Assembly: GCA_030765125.1 (NCBI GenBank)
Contig: JAVCDD010000229.1
Coordinates: forward strand, 1 to 22,185
DNA from: Candidatus Hatepunaea meridiana
GTDB lineage: Bacteria > Electryoneota > AABM5-125-24 > Hatepunaeales > Hatepunaeaceae
Reading direction: 5' to 3'
DNA length: 22,185 nucleotides
Numbering within the stretch: position 1 is the stretch's first letter; each line of letters begins with the position of its first letter. Shown piece by piece: positions 388 through 18,459 of the stretch. The notes beneath the pieces are model-generated. The model was given only the letters and a program-made list of their open reading frames with translations, had not been told where the DNA came from and searched no databases. The translations under genes were made by a program, and so were the position numbers.

Positions 388-1017
388 ATGCACCCAGGAG
401 GTAATCATCATCATTACAGTTGCTATTTAACGACGCAGGATTTACCAGAGGATAGCAGTGGAACCGAAATCTGGTGGAATAACAGGATTACTGATTCAAT
501 CATTCCAACCATACAGCAAATCGTTGATCAACATAACTCATCTGGCAACTATAGAGGTCGTGACGCAGCCTGGATACAGCTCAGGTCGGGATTCAGATGC
601 CCAATAAGGAATAAAAGTTCACAAGTTAAAGGTGCAAATAACAGTCCGCATTTAATGGGCGCAGCCGTTGATCACAAAATTTTGTGGGATAGTCAAGATC
701 TTAACATTGACGCCGATCGAAGACGTCTTTCCAAAATAACCTATCAGATATTTTTTAAATATGATAGCCTGCTTTTTCAAGGTGGCTATCTCTATGGTGT
801 AAGAATTAATAGTGATGGAACAGCAGTTAATTCAGGCTCTTCAAGGCTACGGGATAATCGTTTCTGGAACAAGGATGGTCAAAGGCGTTATACATATCCC
901 CCTAACCCAACTGAAGTCCGGCATTTGTGGTATGTTTGGAGCGCCGGAGATACTACAAAGGTAGTGATGACCCGTGGACACAGTGATTGGTTTCCCAACA
1001 AGAAAAGGAGAAGATAG
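388..1017 (+). pseudogene. 5'-truncated paralog of the 1956..3659 gene, retaining only the C-terminal LAS/M15-like zinc-peptidase domain. The frame is open from 295 and homology starts near 352.
   Basis: MHPGGNHHHYS...SGFRCPIRNKSSQVKGANNSPHLMGAAVDH...TRGHSDW aligns with residues ~390-586 of the 586-aa ORF (GMHPSGIHHHYS...SGYRCPIKNSNLGGAGGSAHMFGSAIDY...RAHTDIR). The N-terminal ~390 codons are replaced by the IS630 element. The stop at 1015..1017 lies 8 nt before the P1 start. Confidence 0.6.
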
Positions 1018-1025
1018 GAGAAATA

Positions 1026-1883
1026 ATGAAAAGAACATTAGCAATTGTCGTAATAATTCTATCCATGTTTTCAACTAATGCTTTCGCCCAGGAAACGCCT
1101 TTGGACACAATAGTAGTCTGGTTTAGCGATTCGCTGAATCAGAATAGACAGGTAAGCGCGTTCTTTACTATCATAGAATCCCACAATTATCATTTCACTG
1201 GGAAAATGGTCGAAGTTAAACCGGAATATGATTCTTCGAAAGTGCGCGACGCATTTGAAGTTTTCGTCAGATCAATCTCTATTAACGCCCCCGTTTATCA
1301 CCCTTTGGATTTCATTGCCTCACAACATCTGGCGACGCCGCCTGTCGCAGACGATACGCTCGGACAAATTGCGCTGGAGAATTGGGATTCACCGGACATT
1401 CTTGACATGGATCTAAGTCTGTACGTTAACTGGGGTTTTACATCCGATCTCTATGAAATAGCGGATATTTTATATGAACCTCAGGGAATAGGGTACTACT
1501 GTGATGTCTGGAACGAGATGGGTATCGGTTATTTTGAGTATATAGAAGATCAACTGGAAGCCGATTCAACCGAATATATGGGTATCTGGAAATGCTCACA
1601 ATATCTGGCTCGATGCGTTGATAAGGATACTACTATTGAGACGAAAGCACTAGAAATACTGTTGGATTGTGCTGCTTCAATGTCACCAGCGCGTCATAGA
1701 GGTATTGTTGGAGAAGGTATCGTCCAGTTATACATGATTGGATACACGGAAGTCAAAAATACTATTGATTCTCTATTAGTCGACCCTGTTCCATCTGTTA
1801 AACGAAAAGTCGTGTGGGATATCCAGAACCAACAACGAAAGAACAACCTCCTGATGGAGTTTAACCTCGGTTCTGATGAATAA
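1026..1883 (+). CDS. secreted protein of unknown function, paralog P1 of a four-member family
   Basis: ATG at 1026 with GGAG at 1017..1020. Signal peptide MKRTLAIVVIILSMFSTNAFA|QE. The family-conserved blocks are present: TPLDT.VVWF.DSLNQ, FVRSI.INA, LSLYVNWGFT.DLY.IAD and the C-terminal QQRKNNLLMEFNLGSDE. Confidence 0.8.
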   Translation: MKRTLAIVVIILSMFSTNAFAQETPLDTIVVWFSDSLNQNRQVSAFFTIIESHNYHFTGKMVEVKPEYDSSKVRDAFEVFVRSISINAPVYHPLDFIASQHLATPPVADDTLGQIALENWDSPDILDMDLSLYVNWGFTSDLYEIADILYEPQGIGYYCDVWNEMGIGYFEYIEDQLEADSTEYMGIWKCSQYLARCVDKDTTIETKALEILLDCAASMSPARHRGIVGEGIVQLYMIGYTEVKNTIDSLLVDPVPSVKRKVVWDIQNQQRKNNLLMEFNLGSDE

Positions 1884-1903
1884 CTTTTCCTTTGAATTTT
1901 GAC

Positions 1904-1935
1904 AAAACCCACTCCGTTAATTCGGAGTGGGTTTT
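1904..1935 (+). terminator. rho-independent-type hairpin between P1 and the large gene (aaaacccactccg-ttaatt-cggagtgggtttt, followed by a T-rich stretch)
   Basis: 13-bp perfect stem, 6-nt loop, followed by tttcttctct. A copy at 6269..6300 carries compensatory substitutions. The ORF-track start at 1899 is a TTG read through this hairpin and is rejected. Confidence 0.55.
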
Positions 1936-1955
1936 CTTCTCTGACCGGTTACAAC

Positions 1956-3659
1956 ATGACTGGTGTATTTGCCCCCGACCCGATTGATGATTATCTTGTC
2001 AATGGAGCTTCGCTTGAGGCTTACGTTATGCTGAACGATAATAACGTCGGTTCCGATACTATTGCAGTTGATTCGCTGCCTCCACCAGAGATACGGGTAT
2101 ATTTCGCCAACAGCGGCTACGAGGAGGTTCCGAAGGGAGCATTCTTCTACGTCCACTGGGACAGCATCTGGGTGGTGGTGGACAGCTTGACCGATGCTCA
2201 AGTACCGACGGTAACATTGGAGTTCAGTGCAAATGGCAAGATCTTCGGTGCGGGAGACATTGCCTGGGATTCGGATTCATCTTACTGGAAAACAGGCGTA
2301 TCAATTGACGCTGACGCCATTCCGACATTGGAGGAGTGGTATATGTATCCATGCGACATCCTGCGAGCCCACGCCAATTACAGCGACACTCATACAACCG
2401 ATGAAATCCGCTGCTTCGACCTGGTCGTCAACACCGGCAGTCTGCGCAACTACAACGGCTCGCCTCCGGTAGTAATGGCTTTAAGGCGCGATGACGATGC
2501 AGATGTCAATGACAGTGGCTTTGTGGCTAATCGGGTTTTATATGACTGGAATGATAACTACTTCGGAGACAACCTGTTTCTGGAATTGCAGAGCTTTAAT
2601 GTTAATCCCGATACGCTCAAAGCCTGGTTTGAATCGGCACAATTCACACAATACTTGCTTGATCCGTTCAACAATAATCATGGCAGCGCTGCATTCTTCT
2701 CTTTGGACGATTTCAGCGGTGAACCATACAACTACCTGAGTGACCTGTTCCAATCATATACTGTTTGGATATCCCAGGGTTGGCCCACGATAGATACTCC
2801 TTCAACCTCAACCGGCAGGGCACACAGGCTCAGGTACAAGGTTACTATAACAGTCAACAATTGGCGCACGGACTGGTGGCCAAGCCAGAACTCATTTATC
2901 GTTTCCAGTCCGATGATTTACCAGAATCCGGTGGATATTTTGCGGCAGGAGTATTTTGATCTGTATGGGAAAATAAGAAGGATCGTTGGAGATGATACGA
3001 TTTTTTACGTTGATCCTGAATGGATTAGTCCTTTATTATCAAATAACTTTATTGACTATGATGTGCCGTTAGGGATGCATCCAAGCGGTATTCACCATCA
3101 CTACAGCAATCATGACAGTACTCAGAACCTCGCGCCTGCAGATAGTATTTTTGAAATCTGGTGTGATTCGAGCATAACAGTGCTAATTGATTGGATTGGA
3201 TGCTACGATTTCAGTGACATAGACCCAAACCTTGTTATAAACAGAACATTTACTTCAGGTTACAGGTGTCCAATCAAGAACTCTAATCTAGGTGGTGCAG
3301 GTGGGAGTGCACACATGTTTGGCAGCGCTATTGATTATAATTTGTACTGGAATGAGTTCAGACATACGAACGAAGATCATAGAAAGAAGCTTTCGAAAAT
3401 CTTTTACAAGGTCTATTCTAGCGCGAATTTACAGCCTGCCAACCATAATTATACTGGATTGTATGGTCAGAATGTCAACAATTGGGGAACCGAGATTATC
3501 TTTAAACGATCTTACTTCCTCAATGATACTCTCGGAAGAGTTGATGGCTATCCAGATCCAGGGAAAGCCTTAGAATGGCCATTACGGTACATTTCAGGAA
3601 ATGATACGATCATTGTTTGTTATACAAGAGCTCACACAGATATTCGTCATCGAAGATAA
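1956..3659 (+). CDS. large (567-aa) protein with no signal peptide. The N-terminal ~390 aa are unknown. The C-terminus is a LAS-family zinc peptidase domain of peptidase M15 / DUF882 (MepK/YcbK-like or VanX/VanY-like) type. Candidate peptidoglycan-hydrolase effector.
   Basis: The first ATG after the hairpin is at 1956; the N-terminus is not hydrophobic. The C-terminus carries SGYRCPIKNSNLGGAGGSAHMFGSAIDY (the SxHxxGxAxD zinc-ligand motif) and a distal YTRAHTDIRHRR (the H.D.R motif of M15A/DUF882 enzymes). A truncated paralog lies at 388..1017. Confidence 0.7.
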   Translation: MTGVFAPDPIDDYLVNGASLEAYVMLNDNNVGSDTIAVDSLPPPEIRVYFANSGYEEVPKGAFFYVHWDSIWVVVDSLTDAQVPTVTLEFSANGKIFGAGDIAWDSDSSYWKTGVSIDADAIPTLEEWYMYPCDILRAHANYSDTHTTDEIRCFDLVVNTGSLRNYNGSPPVVMALRRDDDADVNDSGFVANRVLYDWNDNYFGDNLFLELQSFNVNPDTLKAWFESAQFTQYLLDPFNNNHGSAAFFSLDDFSGEPYNYLSDLFQSYTVWISQGWPTIDTPSTSTGRAHRLRYKVTITVNNWRTDWWPSQNSFIVSSPMIYQNPVDILRQEYFDLYGKIRRIVGDDTIFYVDPEWISPLLSNNFIDYDVPLGMHPSGIHHHYSNHDSTQNLAPADSIFEIWCDSSITVLIDWIGCYDFSDIDPNLVINRTFTSGYRCPIKNSNLGGAGGSAHMFGSAIDYNLYWNEFRHTNEDHRKKLSKIFYKVYSSANLQPANHNYTGLYGQNVNNWGTEIIFKRSYFLNDTLGRVDGYPDPGKALEWPLRYISGNDTIIVCYTRAHTDIRHRR

Positions 3660-3673
3660 TTTTGGAGATGAAA

Positions 3674-4504
3674 ATGAAGCAGTTCAAATTTTCGTTTTTA
3701 GTTCTATTAATGCCGCTAATGCTTGCTAATGCATCAGCTTGGCAAGATTCAATAGTTGTTATGTTTGACAGAACAAAAAACCAGTATACTCAAAGGTGGG
3801 CGTTCAGGACAATTTCAGAACTCACGCCAGCGTTTGTGAGACCGTTTGCAAATACGACCATAAAGGATGATTTTAACACAACCGATGTTAAAGCCGCCTT
3901 TGTTCGATTCGTTGAGTCAATTACCATAAACAAACCTGATCCGTACCCTCCCGATTTTGTTCCCTGTGCCTATCTTGATACTCCAGGAGATGATCGGGAC
4001 ATTGAGGGTATGATTGAGCTTCCTTATATTCTGAGTTTATGTGTCTCATGGAATATTGGTGGGAATCTATACACTATTGCTGATTCGCTATACATAGGGT
4101 ATAATCATTTGTTTCCCGTATATTGTTTTATCTGGAATCAAATGGATACCAGTTACTTCAATCACGTACTTACCCGAACTCAGACCGATTCAACTTTTGT
4201 GAATGGCGTTGGAATAGCGGAGGCGTACCTTTTGTACGGTGAGGATCCAAAGAAAGAGATGAAGAAAATTGCTCTTGATATCCTCGAAACGGGAGCGTTC
4301 TCGCCCTATTACGAAATCCGTCGTTGGACTGCTTATAGAATTGTGAAAGTATATACTGCAGGTTACACATCACTGTTTTCAAGTGTAAATACGTTATTGC
4401 ATGATTCAAGGCAACCCATCAGGTATGAAATCAACTACGAAATATCTAAACAACAGCGCAGAAACAACGCCCTGATGGAGTTTAACCTTGGTTCTGATGA
4501 ATAA
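3674..4504 (+). CDS. secreted protein, paralog P2. An alternative start at 3668 would add MK.
   Basis: GGAG at 3664..3667, so the ATG at 3674 has better spacing. Signal peptide MKQFKFSFLVLLMPLMLANASA|WQ. Conserved FVESITINKP, SLCVSWNIGGNLYTIADSLY and the C-terminal QQRRNNALMEFNLGSDE. Starts 15 nt after the stop of the large gene. Confidence 0.75.
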   Translation: MKQFKFSFLVLLMPLMLANASAWQDSIVVMFDRTKNQYTQRWAFRTISELTPAFVRPFANTTIKDDFNTTDVKAAFVRFVESITINKPDPYPPDFVPCAYLDTPGDDRDIEGMIELPYILSLCVSWNIGGNLYTIADSLYIGYNHLFPVYCFIWNQMDTSYFNHVLTRTQTDSTFVNGVGIAEAYLLYGEDPKKEMKKIALDILETGAFSPYYEIRRWTAYRIVKVYTAGYTSLFSSVNTLLHDSRQPIRYEINYEISKQQRRNNALMEFNLGSDE

Positions 4505-5369
4505 AGGTGTGAAATATATTGTCTTCATTCTGCTTGGGTTGGTGATGTTTGCTAATAGCGCTTTTGCACAAAGTACTCCTTTAGATACAGTTGTTGTCTG
4601 GTTCAACGATAGTCTAAATCAAGAAAAACAGGTTGGTGCATTCTACACAATTATTGTACAAGAGGACTATCATCGATCAACTGATATGGTTGAAGTAAGT
4701 CCAGAATATGATTCTACTAGAGTTCGTAATGCTTTCGAAAATTTTGTACGATCAATTACAATAAATGCTTACACTAGTTATCCTCCAGGATTTAAAGCTA
4801 GTTTATCATTAAACAATCGACCTGCGCCTGAAGATTCCGTTGGATTGCAGGAAGCTGAAGAATGGGATGTCCCTCATATATTGGATTATGTGCTAAGTTT
4901 ATACGTAAATTGGGGATTCACGACAGACCTCTATACAATTGCTGACTTGCTATATCAACCTCATGTAAATCGTATAGGCTATTACGCAATCATTTGGAAT
5001 GAATTAGGTATGGATTATTTCGAACACCTTGAAGATGAACAGGAATCCGATTCAACATTTTACAAAGGTATTTGGATTTGCTCCGAATACCTAACTCAAG
5101 CATACATAAAAGAAGATGACTTGGAAGAAAAAGCCCTTGATTTGCTAGCTGATCGAACACTATCCGGTGTCTCTTCAGTACAAAGAATGTACGCGGGTGC
5201 GAGAATGGTTGAGATCTATATGAAAGGTTATACAAATGTAAAAGCTTGCATAGATACCCTACTACAAGCTGATGATCAATACGTAAAACGCGAGGTTATA
5301 TGGGATATTCAAGAACAACAACGTAAAAACAATCTCCTGATGGAGTTCGACCTCGGTTCGGATGAATAG
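4497..5369 (+). CDS. secreted protein, paralog P3
   Basis: The ATG at 4497 sits inside the GATGAATAA that terminates P2, giving an 8-nt overlap. Signal peptide MNKGVKYIVFILLGLVMFANSAFA|QS. 60-70% identical to P1 over the N-terminal half. C-terminal QQRKNNLLMEFDLGSDE. Confidence 0.8.
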   Translation: MNKGVKYIVFILLGLVMFANSAFAQSTPLDTVVVWFNDSLNQEKQVGAFYTIIVQEDYHRSTDMVEVSPEYDSTRVRNAFENFVRSITINAYTSYPPGFKASLSLNNRPAPEDSVGLQEAEEWDVPHILDYVLSLYVNWGFTTDLYTIADLLYQPHVNRIGYYAIIWNELGMDYFEHLEDEQESDSTFYKGIWICSEYLTQAYIKEDDLEEKALDLLADRTLSGVSSVQRMYAGARMVEIYMKGYTNVKACIDTLLQADDQYVKREVIWDIQEQQRKNNLLMEFDLGSDE

Positions 5370-6247
5370 ATGTGTAAAATATATTGCCTTCATTCTGCTT
5401 GGGTTGATGATTTCGGTTTCACAAATTTATGCGGAAACTGTTCCGGTTGACACCGTAATCACCTGGTTCAACTCATATTGCGACCAAACCAAACAAGTGA
5501 AAGCGTTTTATACAATTGCAATACCGGTAAGAGAAACGGGAGTTTCTTATACTGGCAATAGTGTTTGTTATTGTCCATATCGAATGCTAGGCGTAAAAGC
5601 AATTTACGATACCAGCTCCGTAAAAGATGCCTTCAAAAAACTTCGTTCGTTCCATAACAATCGCTGATTGTACTTCAAGTTGCGACAGTGTTATTCTCTC
5701 GGAAGAGATTTACGGTCCACTACCTGGTGTTGATTATCAGGATTGGGAACCTAGTTACATCCAGAATTCAATATTGAGCCTTTACCTATGGTGGGAGATC
5801 ACTGATGATTTAAACGATATTGCCGACCATCTTTTTACTGGTTTGAATTACCTTGATGGTTATTACTCGTATCTGTGGGATAAGATTGGCACAAGTTATT
5901 TCGAACATGTTAAAACAAAAGTTCAAACCGATACAACATTTACTTTAGGATTGATGATTGCAGGCGCTTACCTCAAGAGCCCTGAAAATCAAATCGATTC
6001 TATGGCGAGTATTGCGGTCGATATTTTAAAAGCAGGTGTAGAATCTGATGTTCGGCAACTGCGCTCAACAACTTCATTTTTAATAGTCGATGCTTATCTA
6101 AAGGGACACGATGATCTGAAGAATGGGATAGATTCGCTATTGAATGACCCTTCGGCAACTACTCGGAGAAATGTATCTTATCAGATCGAAAGACAACAAC
6201 AGAGAAACAATCTCCTGATGGAGTTCGACCTCGGTTCGGGTGAATAG
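5362..6247 (+). pseudogene. secreted-protein paralog P4, disrupted by a +1 frameshift in an A6 run at 5635..5640. Also possible: a sequencing error or a slippage site.
   Basis: The ATG at 5362 again sits inside GATGAATAG of P3. Signal peptide MNRCVKYIAFILLGLMISVSQIYA|ET. The ORF track splits it into 5362..5667 and 5627..6247. Removing one A from ttcAAAAAActt restores DAFKNFVRSITIADC, matching FVRSI(S/T)INA in P1-P3. C-terminal QQQRNNLLMEFDLGSGE. Confidence 0.7.
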
Positions 6248-6440
6248 CCTTTCCTTTGTGTTTCAACCAAAGCCCGTTCCGTTAATTCGGAGCGGGTTTT
6301 CTTTTTGTACCAGTTACAACCTGACTGGTATATTTGCCCCCGACCCAAATGATGATTATCTTGTCAATGGAGCTTCGCTTGAGGCTTATGTTATGCTAAA
6401 CGATAATAACGTCGGTTCCGATACTATTTTAGTATGCTGC
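6248..6440 (+). repeat. ~185-bp direct repeat of 1884..2063 (~90% identity): the intergenic hairpin plus the first ~55 codons of the large gene. The start codon is changed to CTG.
   Basis: Aligned by eye. Identical stretches include gcccccgaccc, gatgattatcttgtcaatggagcttcgcttgaggcttayGTtatgct and aacgataataacgtcggttccgatactatt. Similarity is lost near 6430-6445, where a secretin fragment begins. Confidence 0.8.
6269..6300 (+). terminator. second copy of the intergenic hairpin (aaagcccgttccg-ttaatt-cggagcgggtttt, followed by ctttttg)
   Basis: Stem preserved relative to 1904..1935 through paired substitutions (ac>gt on the left arm, gt>gc on the right; one G-U wobble). Confidence 0.5.
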
Positions 6441-7138
6441 AGTTAAATGGTTTTAAAGAACTCGATTTTGGCAGTATAACGGCAGTTTTTAAATCGCTGG
6501 CAAATGATCAGATTGGCGAAATTATTGCCAGTCCGCAAATCACAGTTCAATCAAACAACGAAGGTCATATCCAGATAGGCAGCGATTTCTCTGTAAGTAC
6601 TAAGGATTATTCTGGTAACACTGTTACGCAATTTTTTTCCGCAGGTACAATTATTAATGTAAATCCACATATTTTTACATTGGATACAGTAACATTTATT
6701 CACCTTGATCTTGATGTCCAGAAAAGCAGTGCGTCCGCCAGCGATCTTGGTATTGAAGTAAAAAAATCATCCGCAAAAACTTCAATATTATTGCTCGATG
6801 GAGAGGAAACAATGATTGGGGGATTATATTCAAAAGAAAAAGCTCATTCCAGAGATGGTGTTCCTATTCTTAAGGACCTGCCGGGGTAGTTACTTGGATT
6901 GAAGTATCTGTTTGGTTATGAGACGGAGAGTATGATCTACAAAGAACTGATAATCATTCTGCGAGCAGATTTGGTGCCCACACTTGAAGAACGATTGAAG
7001 AATCGACTGAGTGATGCTAAGAAACAAAACATCCTGAAAAGCAGCATAGACAGATATAGAGAGGAAATGCGGAACTACGATGCGCAATTAAATAAGAACA
7101 AACTAAAAAACAATAAAACGAATCGGTTATACCCTTAG
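6434..7138 (+). pseudogene. secretin (GspD/PilQ family) C-terminal domain fragment. It lacks its N-terminal half and has an in-frame TAG at 6887..6889.
   Basis: SPQITVQSNNEGHIQIGSDFSV...LLLDGEETMIGGLYSKEKAHSRDGVPILKDLPG * LLGLKYLFGYETESMIYKELIIILRADLV matches the secretin motifs (S.P.I.T.NNQ.A.I.VG...DGET.VLGGLI....VP.LGDIP.LG.LF....EL.IFITP). Both ORF-track pieces (6434..6889 and 6899..7138) are in frame 2. The fragment starts exactly at the repeat breakpoint, and its 3' end runs into the MITE at 7123. Confidence 0.65.
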
Positions 7139-7328
7139 CTCAGCAATGTATAATCATTGTTAAAGCCCCAATGTCTCTAATATGCAAACCTATTACAAGT
7201 AGTGTGCGAGTCTTTCCAATATATTAGATGAAAGAGTCGATTTAATGATACCGGAGTAGTGAAGCTTGCTTCGCGTCACTACGCATAAGCAAGCTTATGC
7301 ACTCCGGCTGAGCTAAAGGCATAACCGA
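7123..7328. mobile_element. MITE-like element, copy 1 (206 bp), with 22-bp terminal inverted repeats TCGGTTATRCCYTTAGCTCAGC and flanking 9-bp direct repeats ATAAAACGA (7113..7121 and 7329..7337)
   Basis: Left end tcggttatacccttagctcagc. Right end gctgagctaaaggcataaccga, which is the reverse complement with 2 mismatches. An internal palindrome gaagcttgcttcgcg...cgcataagcaagctt. A second copy at 16106..16314 is ~93% identical. Confidence 0.65.
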
Positions 7329-7564
7329 ATAAAACGATTATTGTTCCTTAACACCGTGAGTAAAACCTGTTAATCCTGAACATATCCCTTCGAGAAATCC
7401 ATCTACGCGGTCTTTAGAATCAATCACTCTCTCGCGTGCATTTAAGAATTAATGACCAAAGACAGGTGTTAATGGGAGATTTAAACAAGGACACAGACAG
7501 GAATGCTGAAGATTATCTGGCTATGCTGTCAACCCCAGTCAGGCTATGCGGGAATACCTAATAT

Positions 7565-7638
7565 TGTCATTCCGGACTTGATCCAGAATCCACTATTAAC
7601 AACAACTTACTGGATTCCGGATCAAGTCCGGAATGACA
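7565..7638. repeat. 74-bp near-perfect palindrome (28-bp arms tgtcattccggacttgatccagaatcca / tggattccggatcaagtccggaatgaca, 18-nt centre), ~70 nt past the 3' end of the HK gene
   Basis: The arms are reverse complements with a single mismatch. Arm length, loop length and GTCATTCC...GGAATGAC termini match the palindromes at 21938..22010 and 22087..22159. Confidence 0.7.
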
Positions 7639-7706
7639 AGTTAGAGAAAAATCCTATACCTGTACATCCTGCTGTTGATTAACAGCCATCATCCTTTCGC
7701 ATTGAT

Positions 7707-10700
7707 TTACCCCCCGTCCAAAGCCTGCCTTACCTTTACAGCTATTTCCTTCGGGTGAAATGGCTTTTGAATGAATGATGTGCCATGTTCGAGAACTCCG
7801 TTATGCACAATTGCATTTTTTGTATAACCTGACATATACACCACCTTCAGATCAGACCATAACTCGCAAAGCTTTTCTACCAGCTCTTCTCCGCTCATAT
7901 TTGGCATAACCACATCAGTTAAAACGAGATCAACCTGCTTGTCAAGCTTCCGGCAAATATCATAAGCATCGTTTCCATCTATAGCTTCTAAAACTGTATA
8001 CCCCTGCATTTCCAAGATGTAACGAGTGTATTCACGCACTGCTTCTTGATCCTCGACGACCAGAATTGTTTCGCTTCCCTGGGGAATTTCATCTATCTCA
8101 GCTTTTCGATCAATCTTGCCGGCTTTTGCTTCAACCCTTGGCAGATAGAACTTGAACGTTGTTCCTGTTCCCTCTTCACTGTAAACATAAATGTGTCCAT
8201 TGCTCTGCTTGACGATTCCGAAAACGGTTGAAAGCCCAAGTCCTGTTCCTTTGCCTACTTCCTTTGTTGTGAAGAACGGCTCGTATATTTGCTTTTTCAC
8301 TTCCTTTGACATCCCACAGCCTGTATCGCTTACTGCGATCATTACATATTCACCGGGCACAACTTCGATATGATCCCGTGCATATTCCTCGCTCAGTGTA
8401 ACGTTTAAGGTTTCTAATGTCAACCTCCCACCTTTCTGCATTGCATCGCGGGCGTTCACCACGAGATTGACAATGACCTGCTCGACCTGCCCCGGATCAG
8501 CGTTTACCTGCCATAATCCCTTTGCAGGTATCGTTTTATAATCAATGTTCTCACCGATTAACCTGCGCAGCATCTTGTCTAAAGTCGAAATAATCCGATT
8601 AAGATCGAGGACTTTCGGCTCCAATGTCTGCTTGCGACTGAAAGCAAGCAATTGCCTTGTGAGATCCGCTGCGCTAAGAGCCGAATCTTGAATCGTCGTT
8701 ATTTTATCATAAAGCGGATCTCGTTTATTGAGCGACCTCAGAGCAACATCAGCATAACCGGAAATCACTGTAAGCAGGTTGTTAAAATCGTGCGCCACAC
8801 CACCTGCCAGGCGTCCTACTGATTCCATTTTCTGAGACTGGCGGAATTGATCCTCAAGGGACTTTTGTTCGGTGATATCGCGCGATATTTCTATCGCGGT
8901 CTTGGGGCGTCCATCCGCATATCTGCTTGCTGTACTGACAAGGCTCAATTGATATATTGTGTTGCCGTCTTTGTCAATCGTTTTCGCTTCATGAGAATGA
9001 ACCTTCCCGTCTGCGAAGACTTCTTGTATAATGCAATGCTTGCAGGGTTTGTCAAAACGATGATATACCTCGTAACACTTTTTCTCAGTCACATCTACAC
9101 CGAATGAATCCATAACAACTTCATTAGCCCATACGATATTATAATCTTCGTCTATTATACTCATATAATCGGGGATTGACTTGATGATACCGGATAATTT
9201 ATCCTCGCCTTTTTGTAAATTTTCTTCCGCACGTTTGTGTTCAATCGCTTTTGCCACTTGTGTTGACACAAATTCAATAATTTCCTTTTCACGCTCACCA
9301 ATAGCGCTCGAATCCGAATAGTCCTGAACTACCATCACACCGATTGTTTTGCCCTCAATAATAAGTGGTACTCCAAGCCAGATTTCAGACAGATCGCCAA
9401 AGATTTCGACTTCACCACAGCGTTCCAGTTCCTTTTGATCTTCTTTGTAGCACAGTTGTGATTCACTGGTTCTTACCACGTATTCGGTTATTCCTCTGCC
9501 GAACTTACGCGGTAGTAAAGTAACACCTTTTTCATCTGTGAAGTACGGAAAACTCAACAGTTCATTTTCCTCATCACATAAAGCGATAAAGAAATTATCC
9601 GCGGTCATTACATCCTTAATAATATCATGCACTGCTTTGTATAAATCATCGATGCTTTCAGAGCTTTCAACGGCTTGTGATATCCTATATAGTGAATCCT
9701 GCAGCTTCTCCGCCTGCTTGCGCTCTGTGATTTCTACGGTAAGGTCATCCGCTAGACTGAGTGCGGCAATCCGACTGTTTTTTTGATCCTCATAAGCTTT
9801 CTTCCGTTCCTCCTCCGCCTGCTTGCGCTCGGTGATGTCACTGTCTGCACCGCGGTACCCTAAAAGTTCACCGTTGGAGTCCAGAATCGGCAGACCATTG
9901 GTGGAAAGTACAACAATTCGCCCATCTTTGGTTTGCGCGAGATTCTCCAGATTAATGAATGATTGTTTCTTCTTGAATACCTCTAAGGCTACCGACTTTA
10001 AGGCATCGCGTCCCTCGACAGGATGAAGATCGTAGAAATGTTTCTTGCCTACAATTTCATCGGCCTTATAACCTAATACTTCCTCGACGACAGCGCTAAC
10101 ATGGGTGTAAAGCCCGTTGTGATCGACTTCCCAGATAATCTCCCGACTTGTTTTGGCAACCTGATCGAACCGTTCTTCGCTCATTCGCAGCGCCTCATCT
10201 GCCAGTTTACGGTCGGTTATTTCGCGTAAAACACCAGAATTACCAATGATGCTTCCAGAAGCATCTCTTACGATTCTGCTTCGATCTTCAACCCAATGGA
10301 CTTTACCCCAACTATCCAGGACGCGGAACTCACAGGGAATTTCTTCGCCAGTAGTCATCTTGTGTTCAAATTCCGCGATTACCCGTTCAACATCTTCTGG
10401 AAAGATAATCTCGATAAAACTTCCTTTAGTCATTATTTCTTCGGAGATGTAACCGTATAGGGAAACCTGGGGACTGATATGGACAATTTTACCGGCGGTA
10501 TCGGTGTAGTAGACAATATCTTCGATATTCTCAATAAGACTTCGGTATTTCTCCTCGCTGTCACGCAAGGCTTCTTCAGCCTGTTTGCGCTCGGTGATGT
10601 CTCGAATAACAACATGAATTATCTGTTTGTTTCCAAGCGTATATTTGCACGGAGTTGTTTCGGCTAAAAACACAGAACTGTCTTTCCTCACAAACTTTGT

Positions 10701-11825
10701 CTCAATACTTAACATATCTTTTTTCATTACATCAGCCAACACTTGGGCGGAATGTTTCAATTCTATCTCGGGATGCAATTCAAATACCTTCATTTCGAGC
10801 AGTTCTTTTTTTGAATAGCCAAACTTTTCGACTGTCTTATTATTGGCATCCAAGATATTCATATCCATATCATGGATAATAATCGAATCAGGTGAAAATT
10901 GATAAATCTGTCTGTATCTATCTTCATTTTCCTTTAGAGTTTCTTCTGCCTGTTTGCGTTTGGTGATGTCGTTAAGCGCTCCTACTATAGATACGGTCTT
11001 CCCATCAACAACAACCGGACTTTCGCGAACTTCAACCCATATTTTTCTCCCGTTTTTATGAAAGAGTTCCAGCTCGTATGACGGTTGTGGTTTGCCGGTT
11101 TCTATTGCTTTTAATGTTAGTTCAAATCCTTTTTCATTTATAGGATTGTCGGAAACGAGTTCCGTCCATTTAATTAATGCTTCATCTACTTCGTAACCGA
11201 TAATATCTTTAATCTGAGGACTCAGATAAGTTGGGATATGGTCCGGTGTATGAGAATAATATACGTTTGTACTATGTTCAAAGATGTTTCGCAACTTCTC
11301 TTCATTTTCCCTCAGCGCTTCCTCCTTATTCTTTCTGTCTGACAAATCAACGTCAATACAGAATAATATTGGATGTTTACCCGGAAGTTTAACCGCAGTA
11401 TGAATGGAATATACCGGCACAAGATGACCGCCTTTGTGTAAAAGATCCACCTCGCCGGGAGGTGCAAACTCGCCGGATTTCTCAATATACTTTCCTGTTT
11501 TCAGCGCCTTCTCAAATAGCGGCATAATATCATCAGGTATTATTAGATCTCCAAGATTCTGACCAAGCGCCTCCTCTGCAGTATAACCGTATACCTCTTC
11601 ACTTGCCTTATTCCAGTATAAAACGGTACCCTTCAAGTCATAACCTTGTATTGATACTCCTGGTACAAACTCCATAAGATTACGGAATCGCTCTTCGCTT
11701 TCTCTTAGAGCCTCCGTTGCCTGTTTGCGCTCGGTGATTTCACGCTCCAGTTCTTCATTTTTCCGAGTAAGTTCCGCTGTCCTTTCACGTACACTTGCTT
11801 CCAGCGACTCAATTTCCGATTTCAT
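7707..11825 (-). CDS. cytoplasmic hybrid sensor histidine kinase (1372 aa): N-terminal coiled coil, multiple PAS/PAC domains, a GAF-like domain, HisKA, HATPase_c and a C-terminal receiver domain
   Basis: Repeated PAS linkers DITERKQAEEALRESEE. H-box ESVGRLAGGVAHDFNNLL. G-boxes DTGCGMS and GTGLGLS. Receiver ILVVEDQEAV...LVLTDVVMPNMSGEEL...KVVYMSGYT. No hydrophobic segments. GAGGT 5 nt upstream of the ATG. Confidence 0.9.
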   Translation of the reverse strand: MKSEIESLEASVRERTAELTRKNEELEREITERKQATEALRESEERFRNLMEFVPGVSIQGYDLKGTVLYWNKASEEVYGYTAEEALGQNLGDLIIPDDIMPLFEKALKTGKYIEKSGEFAPPGEVDLLHKGGHLVPVYSIHTAVKLPGKHPILFCIDVDLSDRKNKEEALRENEEKLRNIFEHSTNVYYSHTPDHIPTYLSPQIKDIIGYEVDEALIKWTELVSDNPINEKGFELTLKAIETGKPQPSYELELFHKNGRKIWVEVRESPVVVDGKTVSIVGALNDITKRKQAEETLKENEDRYRQIYQFSPDSIIIHDMDMNILDANNKTVEKFGYSKKELLEMKVFELHPEIELKHSAQVLADVMKKDMLSIETKFVRKDSSVFLAETTPCKYTLGNKQIIHVVIRDITERKQAEEALRDSEEKYRSLIENIEDIVYYTDTAGKIVHISPQVSLYGYISEEIMTKGSFIEIIFPEDVERVIAEFEHKMTTGEEIPCEFRVLDSWGKVHWVEDRSRIVRDASGSIIGNSGVLREITDRKLADEALRMSEERFDQVAKTSREIIWEVDHNGLYTHVSAVVEEVLGYKADEIVGKKHFYDLHPVEGRDALKSVALEVFKKKQSFINLENLAQTKDGRIVVLSTNGLPILDSNGELLGYRGADSDITERKQAEEERKKAYEDQKNSRIAALSLADDLTVEITERKQAEKLQDSLYRISQAVESSESIDDLYKAVHDIIKDVMTADNFFIALCDEENELLSFPYFTDEKGVTLLPRKFGRGITEYVVRTSESQLCYKEDQKELERCGEVEIFGDLSEIWLGVPLIIEGKTIGVMVVQDYSDSSAIGEREKEIIEFVSTQVAKAIEHKRAEENLQKGEDKLSGIIKSIPDYMSIIDEDYNIVWANEVVMDSFGVDVTEKKCYEVYHRFDKPCKHCIIQEVFADGKVHSHEAKTIDKDGNTIYQLSLVSTASRYADGRPKTAIEISRDITEQKSLEDQFRQSQKMESVGRLAGGVAHDFNNLLTVISGYADVALRSLNKRDPLYDKITTIQDSALSAADLTRQLLAFSRKQTLEPKVLDLNRIISTLDKMLRRLIGENIDYKTIPAKGLWQVNADPGQVEQVIVNLVVNARDAMQKGGRLTLETLNVTLSEEYARDHIEVVPGEYVMIAVSDTGCGMSKEVKKQIYEPFFTTKEVGKGTGLGLSTVFGIVKQSNGHIYVYSEEGTGTTFKFYLPRVEAKAGKIDRKAEIDEIPQGSETILVVEDQEAVREYTRYILEMQGYTVLEAIDGNDAYDICRKLDKQVDLVLTDVVMPNMSGEELVEKLCELWSDLKVVYMSGYTKNAIVHNGVLEHGTSFIQKPFHPKEIAVKVRQALDGG

Positions 11826-11863
11826 TATAACCTCAATCTATCTTTTTTACTTTCTTACTTTCT

Positions 11864-12005
11864 ACCCTAATCCAGCGCTAAGAGTGCTGTCAGGTGCCCT
11901 CACCTGACAGATAAAGGGGAAATGATGCGTCGTGTGAGGGCACCCGACACCACTCCTTTAATTGTTGGAAATCCAGAATATACCTCCTTATCGCTGGATT
12001 AGGGT
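11864..12005. repeat. 142-bp intergenic element bounded by 14-bp inverted repeats ACCCTAATCCAGCG / CGCTGGATTAGGGT. It contains a perfect 10-bp-stem hairpin ctgtcaggtg-ccct-cacctgacag (11887..11910) and an alternative pairing partner gtgagggcacc (11934..11944).
   Basis: Seen directly. Flanked on both sides by ACTTTCT-type direct repeats. Lies between the stop of the 717-aa PAS gene and the start of the HK gene. Confidence 0.55.
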
Positions 12006-12014
12006 TTCTACTTT

Positions 12015-14168
12015 CTAACTTTCTTGCTCATCAATAGATGAATATTTCTTTGGCTGCCCGAGTTTCTCCAACAGCTCATTGACTTCGCGTTTCATTTCGA
12101 CGATGCGGTATTCCCTGCCCATAAAGAGCCTATTTGTTTTTTCGATTTCTTCCATTTGCTTTTTCAATGCCTCTTCTGATCGCTTGCGCTCAGTGATGTC
12201 AACAACGATTCCTCTAAATCCGATTGGATCGTTTTCACGCATAATAGGAGAGGAATAGATGATTACAGGAAATTTCGTTCCGTCTTTCCTTATGGCTGTG
12301 TATTCACCACCTCCTAATAGTTCTCCCTTTATTATCCTCGCAATATTTTCAGCTGCTCTTCTTCTGTCAACAGGAGCAACCATCTGCAGCGAGTCGATAC
12401 CCTTCGCGTAATCTTCGCTTGTGTACCCAAACCTTTCAAATCCAATCTGGCTGACAAATGTGAGGTTACCCTCCAAATCACATTCATAAATACACTCAGG
12501 GAAAAGTTCCGCCATATCTCTGAATCGACATTCGCTTTCCAGTAACGTCTTCTCCGCCCGTTTGCGTTCAGTGATATCTTCCCCTGAACTTAGTGTTCCT
12601 GAAATATTTCCTTTATCATCTACCAGAATAATATTATGCCACGCGATCAGCCGTTCTTCGCCTTCCACTGTTAAAATAGGATTTTCATAGTATGCTTCCG
12701 AATCTATATCACCTGCAGTCAAATCCGCATGAACGAATTTCATTTCTTCTCGCAATCTTTCGGGCAGAAAATTTTCTAACCAGTTCTTTCCAAGGATTTC
12801 CTCTTTCTCATAACCCAGAATCTCGCACCCTTTATTGTTTATCATCGTCACTACGCCATTATGATTGAGAGCCACGAACATCACACCTGCAATGTTTAAG
12901 TACGTCTGTGATTTACTCCTTTCTTCCCATAACGCTTCCTCTACTCTCTTACGCTCGGTGATGTCCCTTATGAAGGCTAAGACGGTGGGTTTCGCTTCAT
13001 AATCAGTCAAGGATGCATTTGCCTCAACTGGAAAAGTTGAACCATCTTTTCTGAGAAGCTCAAATTCATAGATATTAGGTACAGGTCTTCCCGCTAGACG
13101 ATCTTGATGTTTTTTCAAAACAAATTCTCTGGAATGCGGCGCAATAAAATCAATGAAGTTTTTATTAATCATTTCTTCAAGGGTGTAACCAACTAATTGA
13201 GCCCCTGCAGGGTTCACATACTTCAAAAGACCATCCTGAATTAAAATTATACAATCTTGGGAGCTCTCAACCAGACTGGAGTACTTCTTCTCGGATTCCT
13301 TCAGCTTTTCCTCCGCCCGTTTGCGATCTGTGATGTCACAAACAATAGACATAAACAACTTCTGTCCACTGGTTTTTAAAGGCACAATTGTTAACTCCAG
13401 AACAATCTTTGTACCATCTTTTCGCAATGCATCTCTCACAATGGGCATTTCAATGGGCTGATCAAGATTATTGTAAATCTGTAATCGACCATAGTGTTTT
13501 GCTTGTAAATCAGACGTTTTCATTGATAAGAGTTCTACGCGAGAGTAACCAAATAATTCGCATGCTTTATCACTGAAATCGATTATTTCTTGATTTTCAT
13601 TTTCCAACACTATTGCATCGCCCGCCTGTTCAAAAAGCGCCCGATAACGCTCCTCACCTATCAGCAGCGTTTCCTCAGTTTTTTTTCGTTCGGTGATGTC
13701 GCGTATGATGGCTGAAGCCCAGTATTTTTCTTTTATGCGAATCGGGGAAACTGCTATTTCTATCGGAAACTCGTTGCCGTCCTTGCGCATCGCGGTCAGT
13801 TCAACCACCTTACCGATGGCATTTCCATCTCCCGTTTTCTTGAATGTCTTGAATCCTTTCTTGAACTGAGCGCTATATTGTTTAGGCATAAGAATCTCGT
13901 GGACGTTCTGATCTGTCATTTCTTCATTGGTGTATCCGAAAATACGTTCCGCTGCCGGATTCCAGTACACGATGTTTCCGTCATCATCAATCAGGATCAC
14001 CGCATCAAGCGCCGAGGCACTGATAACGCGGAATTTCTCCTCACTTTCCTTCAGCAGCTCCTCCATCTGCTTGCGTTCGATTTCCGATCCTTCAAGTTCG
14101 GTAATCCGCTGACGCATCGCAGCTAACTCGTCAATTAGCTGCGCTTTGGTTTTGATTTGATCGTTCAT
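12015..14168 (-). CDS. multi-PAS-domain signalling protein (717 aa) with no recognisable output domain; the C-terminus is a coiled coil
   Basis: At least five PAS/PAC units separated by DITERK(K/R)xEEAL linkers. Ends KQMEEIEKTNRLFMGREYRIVEMKREVNELLEKLGQ, with no H-box or ATPase motifs. The first ~30 codons are identical to the ORF at 15279..15674. Confidence 0.85.
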   Translation of the reverse strand: MNDQIKTKAQLIDELAAMRQRITELEGSEIERKQMEELLKESEEKFRVISASALDAVILIDDDGNIVYWNPAAERIFGYTNEEMTDQNVHEILMPKQYSAQFKKGFKTFKKTGDGNAIGKVVELTAMRKDGNEFPIEIAVSPIRIKEKYWASAIIRDITERKKTEETLLIGEERYRALFEQAGDAIVLENENQEIIDFSDKACELFGYSRVELLSMKTSDLQAKHYGRLQIYNNLDQPIEMPIVRDALRKDGTKIVLELTIVPLKTSGQKLFMSIVCDITDRKRAEEKLKESEKKYSSLVESSQDCIILIQDGLLKYVNPAGAQLVGYTLEEMINKNFIDFIAPHSREFVLKKHQDRLAGRPVPNIYEFELLRKDGSTFPVEANASLTDYEAKPTVLAFIRDITERKRVEEALWEERSKSQTYLNIAGVMFVALNHNGVVTMINNKGCEILGYEKEEILGKNWLENFLPERLREEMKFVHADLTAGDIDSEAYYENPILTVEGEERLIAWHNIILVDDKGNISGTLSSGEDITERKRAEKTLLESECRFRDMAELFPECIYECDLEGNLTFVSQIGFERFGYTSEDYAKGIDSLQMVAPVDRRRAAENIARIIKGELLGGGEYTAIRKDGTKFPVIIYSSPIMRENDPIGFRGIVVDITERKRSEEALKKQMEEIEKTNRLFMGREYRIVEMKREVNELLEKLGQPKKYSSIDEQES

Positions 14169-14175
14169 TTTTATC
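14081..14175. repeat. ~95-bp direct repeat (1 mismatch) shared with 15587..15681, covering the start codon and first ~30 codons of two minus-strand PAS genes
   Basis: tttccgatcc(t/a)tcaagttcggtaatccgctgacgcatcgcagctaactcgtcaattagctgcgctttggttttgatttgatcgttcattttt is present at both sites. Confidence 0.85.
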
Positions 14176-14436
14176 TCTATTTAAATTGATTTGATATTGA
14201 ATCTCTACCACTTCATCCATATTATCATCAACAATGAGTATTCGTTTGGGTTCACTCATATAATATGTCCAATCGATAGAGAGAAGTGAGATGTAGGTGC
14301 TAAGTTGATTTTTCTGAAGTTACTGTAATATAGGCTGTTATTCTCAGATTTCAAAATCTGAGCTGACTATCCTTTCCAAATAGGTTCGGACTATCGGTTC
14401 AAGAAACACCTCATATCCTTTATCTATTTGAGGAAC

Positions 14437-14835
14437 TTAACTCAAGATTCCAAAGTAAAAAACAGCCCCCAAAGAGCTGTTTAAGTGATCAGCGTATACG
14501 TCGCCGGTATAACTCGAATCACGCGTGTGCATACGATAAGCGCTGATGTTATTATTCAGTTGATCTATTTCAGTGATCTCGTTCTGTATGACTGAATATG
14601 ATTCGTTAATCATACCTTCATCCACTTCGGTAAATATCATAGATCGATCATATACCCAGGTATTTCCAACTTCTAAGGGATAAATATAACCTGACTCTTC
14701 CGGCTCCATGTACTTCTCTGTGCAGGACATGAGTGAAAAGCTAAAGACTAACAGGATGCAGAGTATAACTTTCGTTGCCGTCCCTGTATTAGTTGTAGTA
14801 TGATTCAATATACGCTTCCATAACTGCAAAAACAA
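14437..14835 (-). CDS. hypothetical small lipoprotein or secreted protein
   Basis: N-terminal hydrophobic stretch KVILCILLVFSFSLMSC followed by TEK, which could be a lipobox. No family recognised. A weak AT-rich hairpin ctcagatttTGAAatctgag lies downstream at ~14348..14367. Confidence 0.4.
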   Translation of the reverse strand: MFLQLWKRILNHTTTNTGTATKVILCILLVFSFSLMSCTEKYMEPEESGYIYPLEVGNTWVYDRSMIFTEVDEGMINESYSVIQNEITEIDQLNNNISAYRMHTRDSSYTGDVYADHLNSSLGAVFYFGILS

Positions 14836-15278
14836 TTACGAATTAATAGTGTCGGGATATAGGCACTGTGTCGATACCTGTCCGGCTACCGACAGATTTG
14901 TCCGCCTTACGGCGGATTCACCCCCCCCTTGATTCCACCCATGCAAGTTTGGGGAGATGACGTGCAGATATTTGGGATTTCACACAAGCTAAGAGGGGAA
15001 AATGTTTGAGAGGCGCAAGTGCCGTCGTGCTCCAGAGATACGCTTTATTACTTTCTCCCTTTCCCACTTTCTTACTTGCTCACTTGCTTTTTCCGTCACA
15101 CTTCGTCACATTTCCGTCACCCCCTCTAACCCTTACCCAGCTTGGCTTTCCGGCGATTGTGTGACGAAGTGACGCTGGATTCACTACTACTCGCGCGCGA
15201 TGTACAACAAATTATGTCAAAATGCAACTCGTAATGCCGTAAAAATACCATACTTACGAATCCGACACACAGCCTTCC

Positions 15279-15674
15279 TCAATTCCAGGAGCCATTCCTA
15301 TGCCGAAAACGATATTCATGATAATGCTGACCATTCTTGAAAATCTGACCAATATTTGCAAATACACGCGGCGCGTCTTCCGGATGTATATGTTTTGCCC
15401 AGAAACCAGAAGACAAGAATTCTTCCGGATCATACCCTATTAAGGTTTTTATATTCTCGCTTATGTATGTTGCGTCGAAATCACCCGTTGCTTCACAGGT
15501 ATAAATCATGGCAGGACTCGCTTCAAGCAAACGCTGTAGTTGATTGTGTGCGTTTAAAAGCGCTTCCTCCGCTTGCTTGCGTTTGGTTTCCGATCCATCA
15601 AGTTCGGTAATCCGCTGACGCATCGCAGCTAACTCGTCAATTAGCTGCGCTTTGGTTTTGATTTGATCGTTCAT
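15279..15674 (-). pseudogene. truncated PAS-domain paralog (131 aa, a single incomplete PAS domain ending ...YRFRHRNGSWN*)
   Basis: The N-terminus MNDQIKTKAQLIDELAAMRQRITEL is identical to the 717-aa protein. The PAS core ends prematurely, where the conserved continuation after RHRNGSW is missing. GC-rich noncoding DNA follows. Confidence 0.55.
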
Positions 15675-15681
15675 TTTTTTC
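15587..15681. repeat. second copy of the 95-bp PAS-gene 5' repeat (partner of 14081..14175)
   Basis: See the partner feature. Confidence 0.85.
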
Positions 15682-16105
15682 CTTGTGAGTTTTCTGAGTC
15701 GCTATGATGGTTTTCCTCTACCCAGATTCTGTATTAACCTTAACGGATTTCCCACCAATACACTTCGATAACGACTTTGATGTTTCAGCGGAGCGTTTCT
15801 ACCTACCCAAAACCAAATATCCGACATGTACAAAATGTATTAAACGGCGCCATCCTATGAATCTATATGATAAGACTTAAAATAATTGAAATCAAAGGGG
15901 ATGATAAGTTAAGGTGGAAAGAATTCTGAAATGTGAGGTATCACACCGGAATAACTCATGTAGTGATTGCTTAACCCATATCGTCTAATTTGACGATATT
16001 GATTTCCACCTTCCTTCCGGCTGATACAAATCCTTCGACGAATGTGGGAGCATGTTTTTAGTATGTTATGTAAGTGCGCTAACGCTGGTTGGGGGATTAT
16101 ACTAA

Positions 16106-16314
16106 TCGATTATACCCCCCCCTTAGCTCAGCAATGTATAATCATGGTTAAAGCCCCAATGTCTCTAATATGCAAACCTATTACAAGTAGTGCGGGTCTT
16201 TCCAATATATTAGATGAAAGAATCGATTTAATGATACCGGAGCGGTGAAGCTTGCTTCGCATCACTATGCTTAAGCAAGCTTATGCACTCCGGCTGAGCT
16301 AAAGTCATAACCGA
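16106..16314. mobile_element. MITE-like element, copy 2 (209 bp), same orientation as copy 1
   Basis: Left end tcgattataccccccccttagctcagc, right end gctgagctaaagtcataaccga. The interior is collinear with 7123..7328, with scattered substitutions and one 2-bp indel. No clean TSD is visible. Confidence 0.65.
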
Positions 16315-16468
16315 AAAAGAAAAACTAATCACTCCGTTAATCCAATATATCCTCTTTACGATCCTGATCGTTGTTACGCCGTTTGTGGTGGTCGCGAAGT
16401 TCTTACTTTGTTCCCGAAAATTCCTTAAACGGATTTTAAGCGAGCTTCTTATTAATGAATGAAATAAC

Positions 16469-16566: not shown

Positions 16567-16704
16567 CATGCGGAACGCAATCCTTTTATTCACAATCTTA
16601 TGCATCGCACTACTTACAGTAAACACACCATTCGCCCAGAACTACGAAAATGTCGAACAGGTCAATCGGTTTGGTAACTATTGGTATAGAGCTTATGATG
16701 TCTG
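16567..16704 (+). CDS. possible small secreted peptide (45 aa; mature form about 21 aa, NYENVEQVNRFGNYWYRAYDV)
   Basis: ATG at 16567, preceded by GGAGA with a 6-nt spacer. Signal peptide MRNAILLFTILCIALLTVNTPFA|Q. TGA at 16702. Not in the ORF track because it is shorter than 60 aa. A hairpin at 16707..16731 follows. Confidence 0.4.
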
Positions 16705-16754
16705 ATTGACGACAATTAGAATTGTCGCTGACTGGGAAGAATAATTGTCGTTCA

Positions 16755-17030
16755 TCAGAAGGGCACACTCATTGCTTTGTCTGTGAGGCTCCTGATGACC
16801 TTTTCCCCCGTCATGTCCGGGAGTATATAGTCCAACAACAATAGTTTATTCGTGTCTTCAACCACCTTGACAATGGCATCAATTCCATTCAAAGCGGTTT
16901 CGGTTCGAAAACCTGATTTTTGAAGGAATTTTTGAATGAACCGATTTAAATCCTCATCATCTTCAATTATAAGAATAGTGAGAGGAGCGGAATCTTTATT
17001 CTTATTATTGCGATGTTTATCACCTTTCAC
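16755..17030 (-). pseudogene. truncated response-regulator receiver domain (91 aa; ends after ...KAMSVPF, before the conserved Thr/Lys region and any output domain)
   Basis: ILIIEDDEDLNRFIQKFLQKSGFRTETALNGIDAIVKVVEDTNKLLLLDYILPDMTGEKVIRSL is a typical REC N-terminal two-thirds. Stop at 16755; the downstream frames show no REC continuation. Confidence 0.55.
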
Positions 17031-17744: not shown

Positions 17745-18050
17745 CTACACTGAGGAAGTCTCAAGCCTGGCTAATCTTTCCTCTATCCGCGTGAGAGTAT
17801 CGTCTTGTCGTCTATTAAATTCATTCTGGTGAAACATGGGATTATTAACCCACCAGTCCATGCCCATTTCTTTAGCTTTATCCACAGAGCAGATCACCAA
17901 TCGAATCTGGATAGTCAGTAATTCGACATCGGCGATATTAATCCTGATATCACCGGCTATTACAATCCCCTTATCCAGAATACGCTCTAAAATGTCCGCC
18001 AAAGTGCTGGAATTGGTTGAATGTTGCATTGCTTGTTGCTGTATTGCCAC
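17745..18050 (-). CDS. gvpJ: gas vesicle protein of the GvpA/GvpJ family, GvpJ-like (101 aa, GTG start)
   Basis: LADILERILDKGIVIAGDIRINIADVELLTIQIRLVICSVDKAKEMGMDWW is the GvpA-fold core with the extended C-terminus of the J/M subfamily. GGAGA 7 nt upstream of the GTG. Confidence 0.7.
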   Translation of the reverse strand: MAIQQQAMQHSTNSSTLADILERILDKGIVIAGDIRINIADVELLTIQIRLVICSVDKAKEMGMDWWVNNPMFHQNEFNRRQDDTLTRIEERLARLETSSV

Positions 18051-18063
18051 TTAATTATCTCCT

Positions 18064-18459
18064 TTAGAATAATTTCCCAATAGGACCAAGATCAATGTTT
18101 AGGTCGTCTTCCTTTAATCCAAACTCTCTGCTGATTCTATTGATTTCTTCTGTCTGCTGCATTAAAGTTAACCCGAGTTTTTCAATCTCGGCATCTGTCA
18201 ATGATCCTGCGTCGATGCGTCTTATTGCCTGCTTCTCTAAAAGCTCGTGAAGCAGTTTAATAATTGATAACACCAGTTGAGCAAGTCCATTTTTTACCTT
18301 TTCCGCGTCCAAGTTTATTCTATCTTTCCCTTTTATCCTTGAGATAGATTTTGCGGTATTTTGTTTATTAGGCAGAAGAGAACCTTGTCCTTTTTGCATT
18401 ATTTTACTAAAATCGCTCAGTGCATTGGATTCTACAACCGGCTGTTTAAAAGGTGACAT
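18064..18459 (-). CDS. gvpK: gas vesicle protein GvpK
   Basis: GLAQLVLSIIKLLHELLEKQAIRRIDAGSLTDAEIEKLGLTLMQQTEEINRISREFGL matches the GvpK signature (LV.TL.ELLR.L.E.QA.RR...G.LTDEE.ERLG..LM). AGGAGA 6 nt upstream of the ATG. Confidence 0.75.
   Translation of the reverse strand: MSPFKQPVVESNALSDFSKIMQKGQGSLLPNKQNTAKSISRIKGKDRINLDAEKVKNGLAQLVLSIIKLLHELLEKQAIRRIDAGSLTDAEIEKLGLTLMQQTEEINRISREFGLKEDDLNIDLGPIGKLF

Follow-up and report, generated by a model that had tools for sequence, protein, structure and literature searches.

Two direct repeats in the 22,185-nucleotide stretch of Candidatus Hatepunaea meridiana DNA analysed here (hereafter the window) are very probably copies of a non-autonomous DNA transposon of about 206 bp, a MITE of the IS1595 family. 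An initial annotation made from the letters alone had placed the two copies at 7123-7328 and 16106-16314, in direct orientation and about 93% identical. Both the positions and the orientation were borne out, with an identity of 94.4% over 197 nt by blastn. The MITE interpretation given there is now supported by two features of the data: the flanks of the copies are not paralogous, and autonomous insertion sequences (ISs) exist with the same terminal inverted repeats (TIRs). The features on which the argument draws are the following.

7123-7328, no strand: MITE copy 1, 206 bp between the TIR termini; the unit may add 1 nt at 7122 and/or 7329
16106-16314, no strand: MITE copy 2, 209 bp, in the orientation of copy 1, decayed and without a recognisable target duplication
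7123-7144, plus strand: left TIR of copy 1, TCGGTTATACCCTTAGCTCAGC; 20/22 against the TIR of the 995-bp IS
7307-7328, minus strand: right TIR of copy 1, reading GCTGAGCTAAAGGCATAACCGA on the plus strand and TCGGTTATGCCTTTAGCTCAGC on the minus strand; 22/22 against the IS TIRs
16106-16132, plus strand: left TIR of copy 2, TCGATTATACCCCCCCCTTAGCTCAGC; damaged by a G4-to-A change and five extra C
16293-16314, minus strand: right TIR of copy 2, reading TCGGTTATGACTTTAGCTCAGC on the minus strand; 21/22 against the IS TIR
7113-7121, no strand: left target-site duplication of copy 1, ATAAAACGA, or the 8-bp TAAAACGA at 7114-7121, with a spacer A at 7122
7329-7337, no strand: right target-site duplication of copy 1, ATAAAACGA, or TAAAACGA at 7330-7337
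7251-7307, no strand: internal hairpin (palindrome) of copy 1, CCGGAG...CTCCGG around a perfect 10-bp stem, AAGCTTGCTT/AAGCAAGCTT
6899-7138, plus strand: 3' end of a secretin-like ORF, the stop codon of which now lies within the left TIR of copy 1

Borders and ends of the two copies

Pairwise alignment of the two copies, together with some 30 nt of sequence to either side, showed that their likeness starts and stops no more than 1-2 nt from the TIR termini and that the flanking sequences are unrelated to each other. The repeat finder recovered the element in two halves (families D6 and D11), which span 7132-7332 and 16120-16318; in D11, identity between the copies runs unbroken for up to about 70 bp. 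Relative to copy 1, copy 2 has a 2-bp internal deletion. Coding capacity is absent from both copies, in which stops occur in all six frames and at most 50 codons are open in succession. In addition, concatenated peptides from the MITE frames gave 0 matches in a protein database of 5.8 billion clusters, where the window's own copies are also uncalled, so that the result says nothing about copies elsewhere.

These borders bear directly on a duplication origin of the repeats, for which the initial annotation had named paralogous flanking DNA as the telling sign; the flanks proved unrelated. An origin of the repeats from ordinary intergenic DNA, by segmental or tandem-type duplication, would suit such a paralogue-rich region, since the window abounds in local duplications (14059-14175/15565-15681, 1903-2068/6268-6433 and the PAS repeats) and only two copies of the repeat are known. 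Nevertheless, we regard it as exceedingly improbable: the homology ends exactly at the inverted-repeat termini, a target-type duplication accompanies copy 1, and in other genomes the identical termini bound ISs that encode a transposase. This last point, the sharing of IS termini, effectively refutes the duplication origin.

The TIRs of copy 1 are 22 bp long and complementary at 20 of 22 positions (91%; inverted-repeat pair I13). In the window, the degenerate TIR pattern TCGGTTAT-N4-TTAGCTCAGC has 3 matches, against 0.00 expected from 100 shuffles. Inverted repeats had initially been described at the borders of both copies, which holds for both ends of copy 1 and for the right end of copy 2. 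The left TIR of copy 2, however, is off the consensus, and the window scan with the TIR pattern left it unmatched even when 3 mismatches were allowed. The part of the pattern reading TTAGCTCAGC also resembles a tRNA D-arm, a likeness that we dismissed as coincidental; a tRNA/tmRNA scan of the window returned nothing.

Taken together, copy 1 looks like a well-preserved insertion, with good TIRs on both sides and a perfect duplication, while copy 2, with its mutated inner TIR, its 2-bp deletion and no duplication, looks older or damaged. Judged from its sequence, copy 1 looks still competent for transposition, and copy 2 is probably not because its TIR is damaged.

Partner insertion sequences of the IS1595 family

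Species-representative genomes were scanned with the TIR pattern, which yielded 20 loci, about 15 of them genuine; the 5 chance matches fell in Pelagibacter, Prochlorococcus, Clostridia and Actinomycetota. Five contigs (L021-L025) contain complete ISs of 995 bp, bounded by the 22-bp end of the MITE and each with a single ORF of 300 aa, whose stop codon sits within the right TIR of the IS. Four of them (L022-L025) carry TCGGTTATGCCTTTAGCTCAGC at both ends, and the fifth (L021) has one mismatch in its right TIR. The IS ORF matches the Pfam families Zn_ribbon_IS1595 (PF12760, E = 2e-18) and DDE_Tnp_IS1595 (PF12762, E = 4e-13), and the full transposase (P0001, 300 aa) reaches 194 bits against a cutoff of 75 with the NCBIfam model NF033547 (transpos_IS1595). 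The contigs encoding P0001 and P0002 hold the complete 995-bp IS. At locus L020, the ORF begins 66 nt past the TIR and its first 205 codons match the same two Pfam families; P0001 is the full-length form of this protein. The motifs of the partner transposase look like the DDN(K/R)+ER4R7 type. An autonomous IS with the same TIRs, which the initial annotation had proposed as the way to assign the family, is thus at hand in these 995-bp elements with their IS1595-family transposase. We therefore place the MITE in the IS1595 family, because its 22-bp ends bound transposase-encoding ISs of that family.

The same ends also appear in a fragmented form. In the MAG CAZAGU01, eight TIR matches are located at the ends of contigs. 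They represent two sequence types with four members apiece, and these types are exactly the two ends of one of the complete ISs (L022). Their presence at eight contig ends indicates a multi-copy repeat that was collapsed in assembly. Related ISs of 982-1000 bp, with 1-4 differences in the TIR and transposases 62-67% identical, were found as well (L026/L027, L031/L032 and L033). One IS of this clade, 982 bp long, belongs to Candidatus Electryonea clarkiae and has perfect 22-bp TIRs, CCGGTTATGCCCTTAGCTCAGC, which are identical to either TIR of copy 1 at 20 of 22 positions; its transposase ORF is truncated to 210 aa. [quoted passage not shown] Electryonea clarkiae represent two genera of the candidate phylum Electryoneota from Ace Lake, Antarctica (PMC9324843).

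Within the window itself, no IS1595-type transposase was found, a point against the MITE reading; the nearest documented source of a cognate enzyme is the sister genus Ca. Electryonea clarkiae with its truncated ORF. The plasmid collection held no DNA match to the MITE, and the closest annotated transposases there, labelled 'IS1595 family transposase', are at most 42% identical. Since the element has only its TIRs in common with the ISs, encodes nothing and lies in a window without a transposase, we propose that it is an IS1595-family MITE mobilised in trans. A transposase of about 300 aa, with an N-terminal zinc ribbon and a C-terminal DDE domain, would be supplied from elsewhere by a full-length IS of about 1 kb with the same ends. 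Judging from the family, this enzyme would bind the 22-bp TIRs and cut out or copy the element, which would then be inserted where an A/T-rich target has been cut in a staggered fashion, the two cuts lying 8-9 bp apart. Once the gaps are filled in, a short direct repeat would be left.

How the core of the MITE was acquired is a separate matter. Similarity between the core and the interior of the ISs is absent beyond the 22-25 terminal nucleotides, and a simple internal-deletion derivative of the IS was rejected, since the core resembles none of the ISs. Three other MAGs contain small elements with the same ends and unrelated cores, of 307 bp (L004), 220 bp (L005) and 192 bp (L014). An apparent 8-bp duplication at the first of these (L004) was set aside as ambiguous, its flanks being also inverted repeats of each other.

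The element fits well among known systems. Members of the IS1595 family encode a single zinc-finger and DDE transposase and usually generate 8-bp duplications (Siguier, Gagnevin & Chandler 2009, summarised in PMC8101967). The MITE has the 22-bp termini of the 995-bp ISs, and its A/T-rich duplication of 8-9 bp is compatible with the usual 8 bp; it differs from these ISs in its length of 206 bp, in having no ORF and in sharing nothing but the TIRs. A close parallel is the IS1595-associated MITE of Haloquadratum walsbyi, the partner of which is ISHwa6 (165 bp, IR 25, DR 8, 7 copies; PMC3852290 Table 4). Both elements are smaller than 250 bp, have TIRs of 22-25 bp, are flanked by a repeat of roughly 8 bp and can be paired with an IS from the IS1595 family. 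The former, however, has an archaeal host, an unrelated sequence and more copies, whereas the window element comes from an Electryoneota bacterium. MITEPye1 of Paracoccus yeei, from the IS1182 family, is present in 1-3 intergenic copies per chromosome and forms a long stem-loop (PMC11578231). It is recognised by the same characters (small size, TIRs, direct repeats, no transposase and TIRs common with an IS) and resembles our element in its low copy number, intergenic location and long stem-loop fold, but belongs to another IS family with other TIRs and another duplication length. Finally, the eukaryotic Merlin transposons and their MITEs are related to IS1016/IS1595 (PMC8101967). The likeness consists of the DDE_Tnp_IS1595 catalytic domain of the partner transposase and of duplications of 8-9 bp; the Merlin elements are nonetheless eukaryotic, have TIRs that begin with GG and show no sequence relation to the window element.

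With the MITE reading, two otherwise unexplained repeats are now annotated in the genome of a barely studied candidate phylum (Electryoneota, Ace Lake), and an IS1595-type IS/MITE system common to uncultured FCB-group bacteria is recognised. General knowledge of MITEs and of IS1595 elements is left unchanged.

Insertion sites, the bracketed region and neighbouring genes

The direct repeat around copy 1 can be fitted equally well in two ways, either as a duplication of 9 bp (element 7122-7328) or as one of 8 bp (element 7122-7329). On the left, a single A separates the duplication from the TIR. This 1-nt offset counts against the MITE reading, as does copy 2, where inspection of the flanks revealed no recognisable target duplication. 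The 9-bp duplication first reported for copy 1 is accordingly confirmed as a perfect repeat on both sides, with the reservation that it is offset by 1 nt on the left and that 8 bp fits equally. Of 21,925 window positions, only 3 (~1.4e-4) have a direct repeat of at least 8 nt within 1 nt of a 206-bp segment, so the one at copy 1 is no chance feature. The predicted empty site for copy 1 is ...AAAAACAATAAAACGATTATTGTTCC....

One of the related ISs (L026/L027) is flanked by TCATTTAA, a direct repeat of 8 bp that is displaced by 1 nt just as at copy 1. Clean duplications are absent at several full-length ISs in metagenome contigs (L021-L023, L031 and L033), for which chimeric assembly at repeats may be responsible; as a consequence, the duplication length for this IS clade rests on few cases. 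Among 32 distinct TIR ends, the 10-11 nt adjoining the TIR are about 90% A/T and the positions further out are not, which points to an A/T-rich target of roughly the length of the duplication. Besides, the 13 nt to the right of copy 1 (7329-7341, ATAAAACGATTAT) and those to the right of one of the small elements (L014 384-396, ATAAAATGATTAT) are identical at 12 of 13 positions. Both are of the form ATAA-N5-TTAT; the elements may favour such a target, or the likeness may be fortuitous given how A/T-rich the targets are.

The two copies enclose 9.2 kb that encode PAS proteins and a hybrid histidine kinase, and the whole (7123-16314) could be imagined as one composite mobile unit that uses the outermost TIRs. 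Indeed, the outer ends, namely the left TIR of copy 1 and the right TIR of copy 2, are intact and correctly facing, and the damaged TIR is an inner one. We nevertheless judge a composite unit very improbable. The sequences outside it form no direct repeat (...ATAAAACGAA on the left versus AAAAGAAAAA... on the right), and copy 1 has a duplication of its own, which shows that it inserted alone; these two observations together make a composite-transposon origin unlikely. Furthermore, a second instance of the 9-kb unit was not found.

The outcome of the searches for further copies and for empty sites also counts against the MITE reading. A metagenome scan with a MITE-specific two-anchor pattern recovered the same locus again (L030) and two chance matches, so that two MITE copies were found in all, and scans of viral contigs returned only chance matches in coding DNA. 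Independent contigs from Ace Lake-type assemblies (L030, L037 and L038) are 99.9-100% identical to the window. One of them (L030) is 100% identical over 6878-9181 and carries copy 1 at the same site, and the other two (L037 and L038), reached through small proteins encoded nearby, carry copy 2, identical and at the same site. All three hold the insertions, and neither an empty site nor a presence/absence polymorphism was seen among them. From window position 9182 onward, inside the PAS-repeat part of the gene for the 1372-aa kinase, the first contig diverges from the window (L030 2305-3085), which means either that strains vary in their PAS-domain content or that repeats caused a misassembly in one of the two.

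It had also been suggested that the copies could mediate deletion or inversion of the interval between them. Because they are direct repeats, RecA-type recombination could delete the 9-kb PAS/kinase block, and this sensor-kinase region could be lost in that way; inversion is not possible. Nothing in the window or in the three independent contigs indicates a rearrangement of the bracketed region.

The genes on either side of copy 1 converge, and its insertion point falls within the final codons of what is left of a secretin-like gene. The secretin-like ORF ends ...KNNKTNRLYP* at a TAG in the TIR and would end ...KNNKTIIVP* with the MITE removed, so the MITE accounts for an ORF that ends inside the repeat. 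The gene (6268-7138) has an in-frame TAG at 6887-6889 (...DLPG*LLGLKYLFGY...), which is present in the independent contig L030 too. Towards its 5' end, 6268-6433 repeats 1903-2068 at 90% identity and is full of stops. On account of the in-frame TAG and the stop-riddled, duplicated 5' part, the secretin-like gene is probably a pseudogene, and the insertion of copy 1 would then have struck a pseudogene. The region beside the secretin remnant (987-6247) holds an uncharacterised set of genes amplified in tandem. It consists of four paralogous ORFs, 206-298 aa long and conserved at their 3' ends (repeat families D3/D4, ...LLMEFNLGSDE*), with a 586-aa ORF, which has no NCBIfam match, interleaved among them.

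Copy 2 occupies a gap of about 0.9 kb that is flanked by an apparently frameshifted response-regulator gene and by a fragment of a PAS-domain gene. The response-regulator gene (16610-17030) appears frameshifted in that the match to the receiver-domain profile breaks off at position 72 of 111 (window 16755) and the remainder (...IVTKPIDLFDI...) runs on in another frame. On the other side, a 117-bp duplication with 94% identity (14059-14175/15565-15681) covers the 5' ends and the upstream hairpin (CGCAGCTAACTCGTCAATTAGCTGCG) of two PAS-domain genes, the second of which (15279-15674) is only a fragment of 131 aa. Just to the right of the neighbourhood of copy 2 lies a gas-vesicle cluster (17745-20666, L036) with two Gas_vesicle/GvpA-type genes, GvpK and an ArsA-like double ATPase.

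Fold of the core and other small repeats

The internal palindrome mentioned in the initial annotation is real and lies at 7251-7307 in copy 1. A strong hairpin fold is usual for MITEs. Folded as RNA, the whole of copy 1 reaches -74.7 kcal/mol (z = -7.5), and copy 2 has a z of -3.8. At the tip of the hairpin, the two copies differ by one compensatory change from G-C to A-T (GCGT/ACGC at 7272-7285 in copy 1 versus GCAT/ATGC at 16260-16273 in copy 2).

Such stability, the compensatory change and the position of copy 1 between converging genes would suit a structured RNA or DNA module, for instance a stabilising or terminating hairpin or a small RNA gene, with selection acting on the core and the TIRs being incidental. 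We hold this to be highly improbable on several grounds. Most of the folding energy comes from the pairing of TIR with TIR, and two sequences cannot establish covariation. Scans of the window identified no promoter-like or terminator-like site inside either copy, and an Rfam scan of the entire window at gathering thresholds gave 0 matches. In addition, the MITEs of other MAGs that have the same TIRs contain unrelated cores. A mixed scenario also appears very improbable, in which IS1595-type ends have repeatedly been joined to unrelated structured cores and the present core, with its conserved 10-bp stem and one compensatory change, would be a selected module such as a transcript-end hairpin, or in which the pair of copies would make the 9-kb PAS/kinase block mobilisable. 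The most probable reading of the repeats is still that of an IS1595-family MITE.

A second family of small repeats, made of nested palindromes, was noticed alongside the MITE. Its arms, such as TGTCATTCCCGCGAAAGCGGGAATCCAG, are each a hairpin. Three copies lie in the window (7564-7639, 21928-22018 and 22078-22166), and the distance between MITE copy 1 and one of these is 236 bp. A copy with 86% identity is present in the MAG JABMRV01 bin.11 (L014 1144-1221), and the motif TTGTCATTCC... adjoins the IS in Ca. Electryonea clarkiae (L031 ~4915-4940). This family looks like a REP- or MITE-like element common to these uncultured bacteria.
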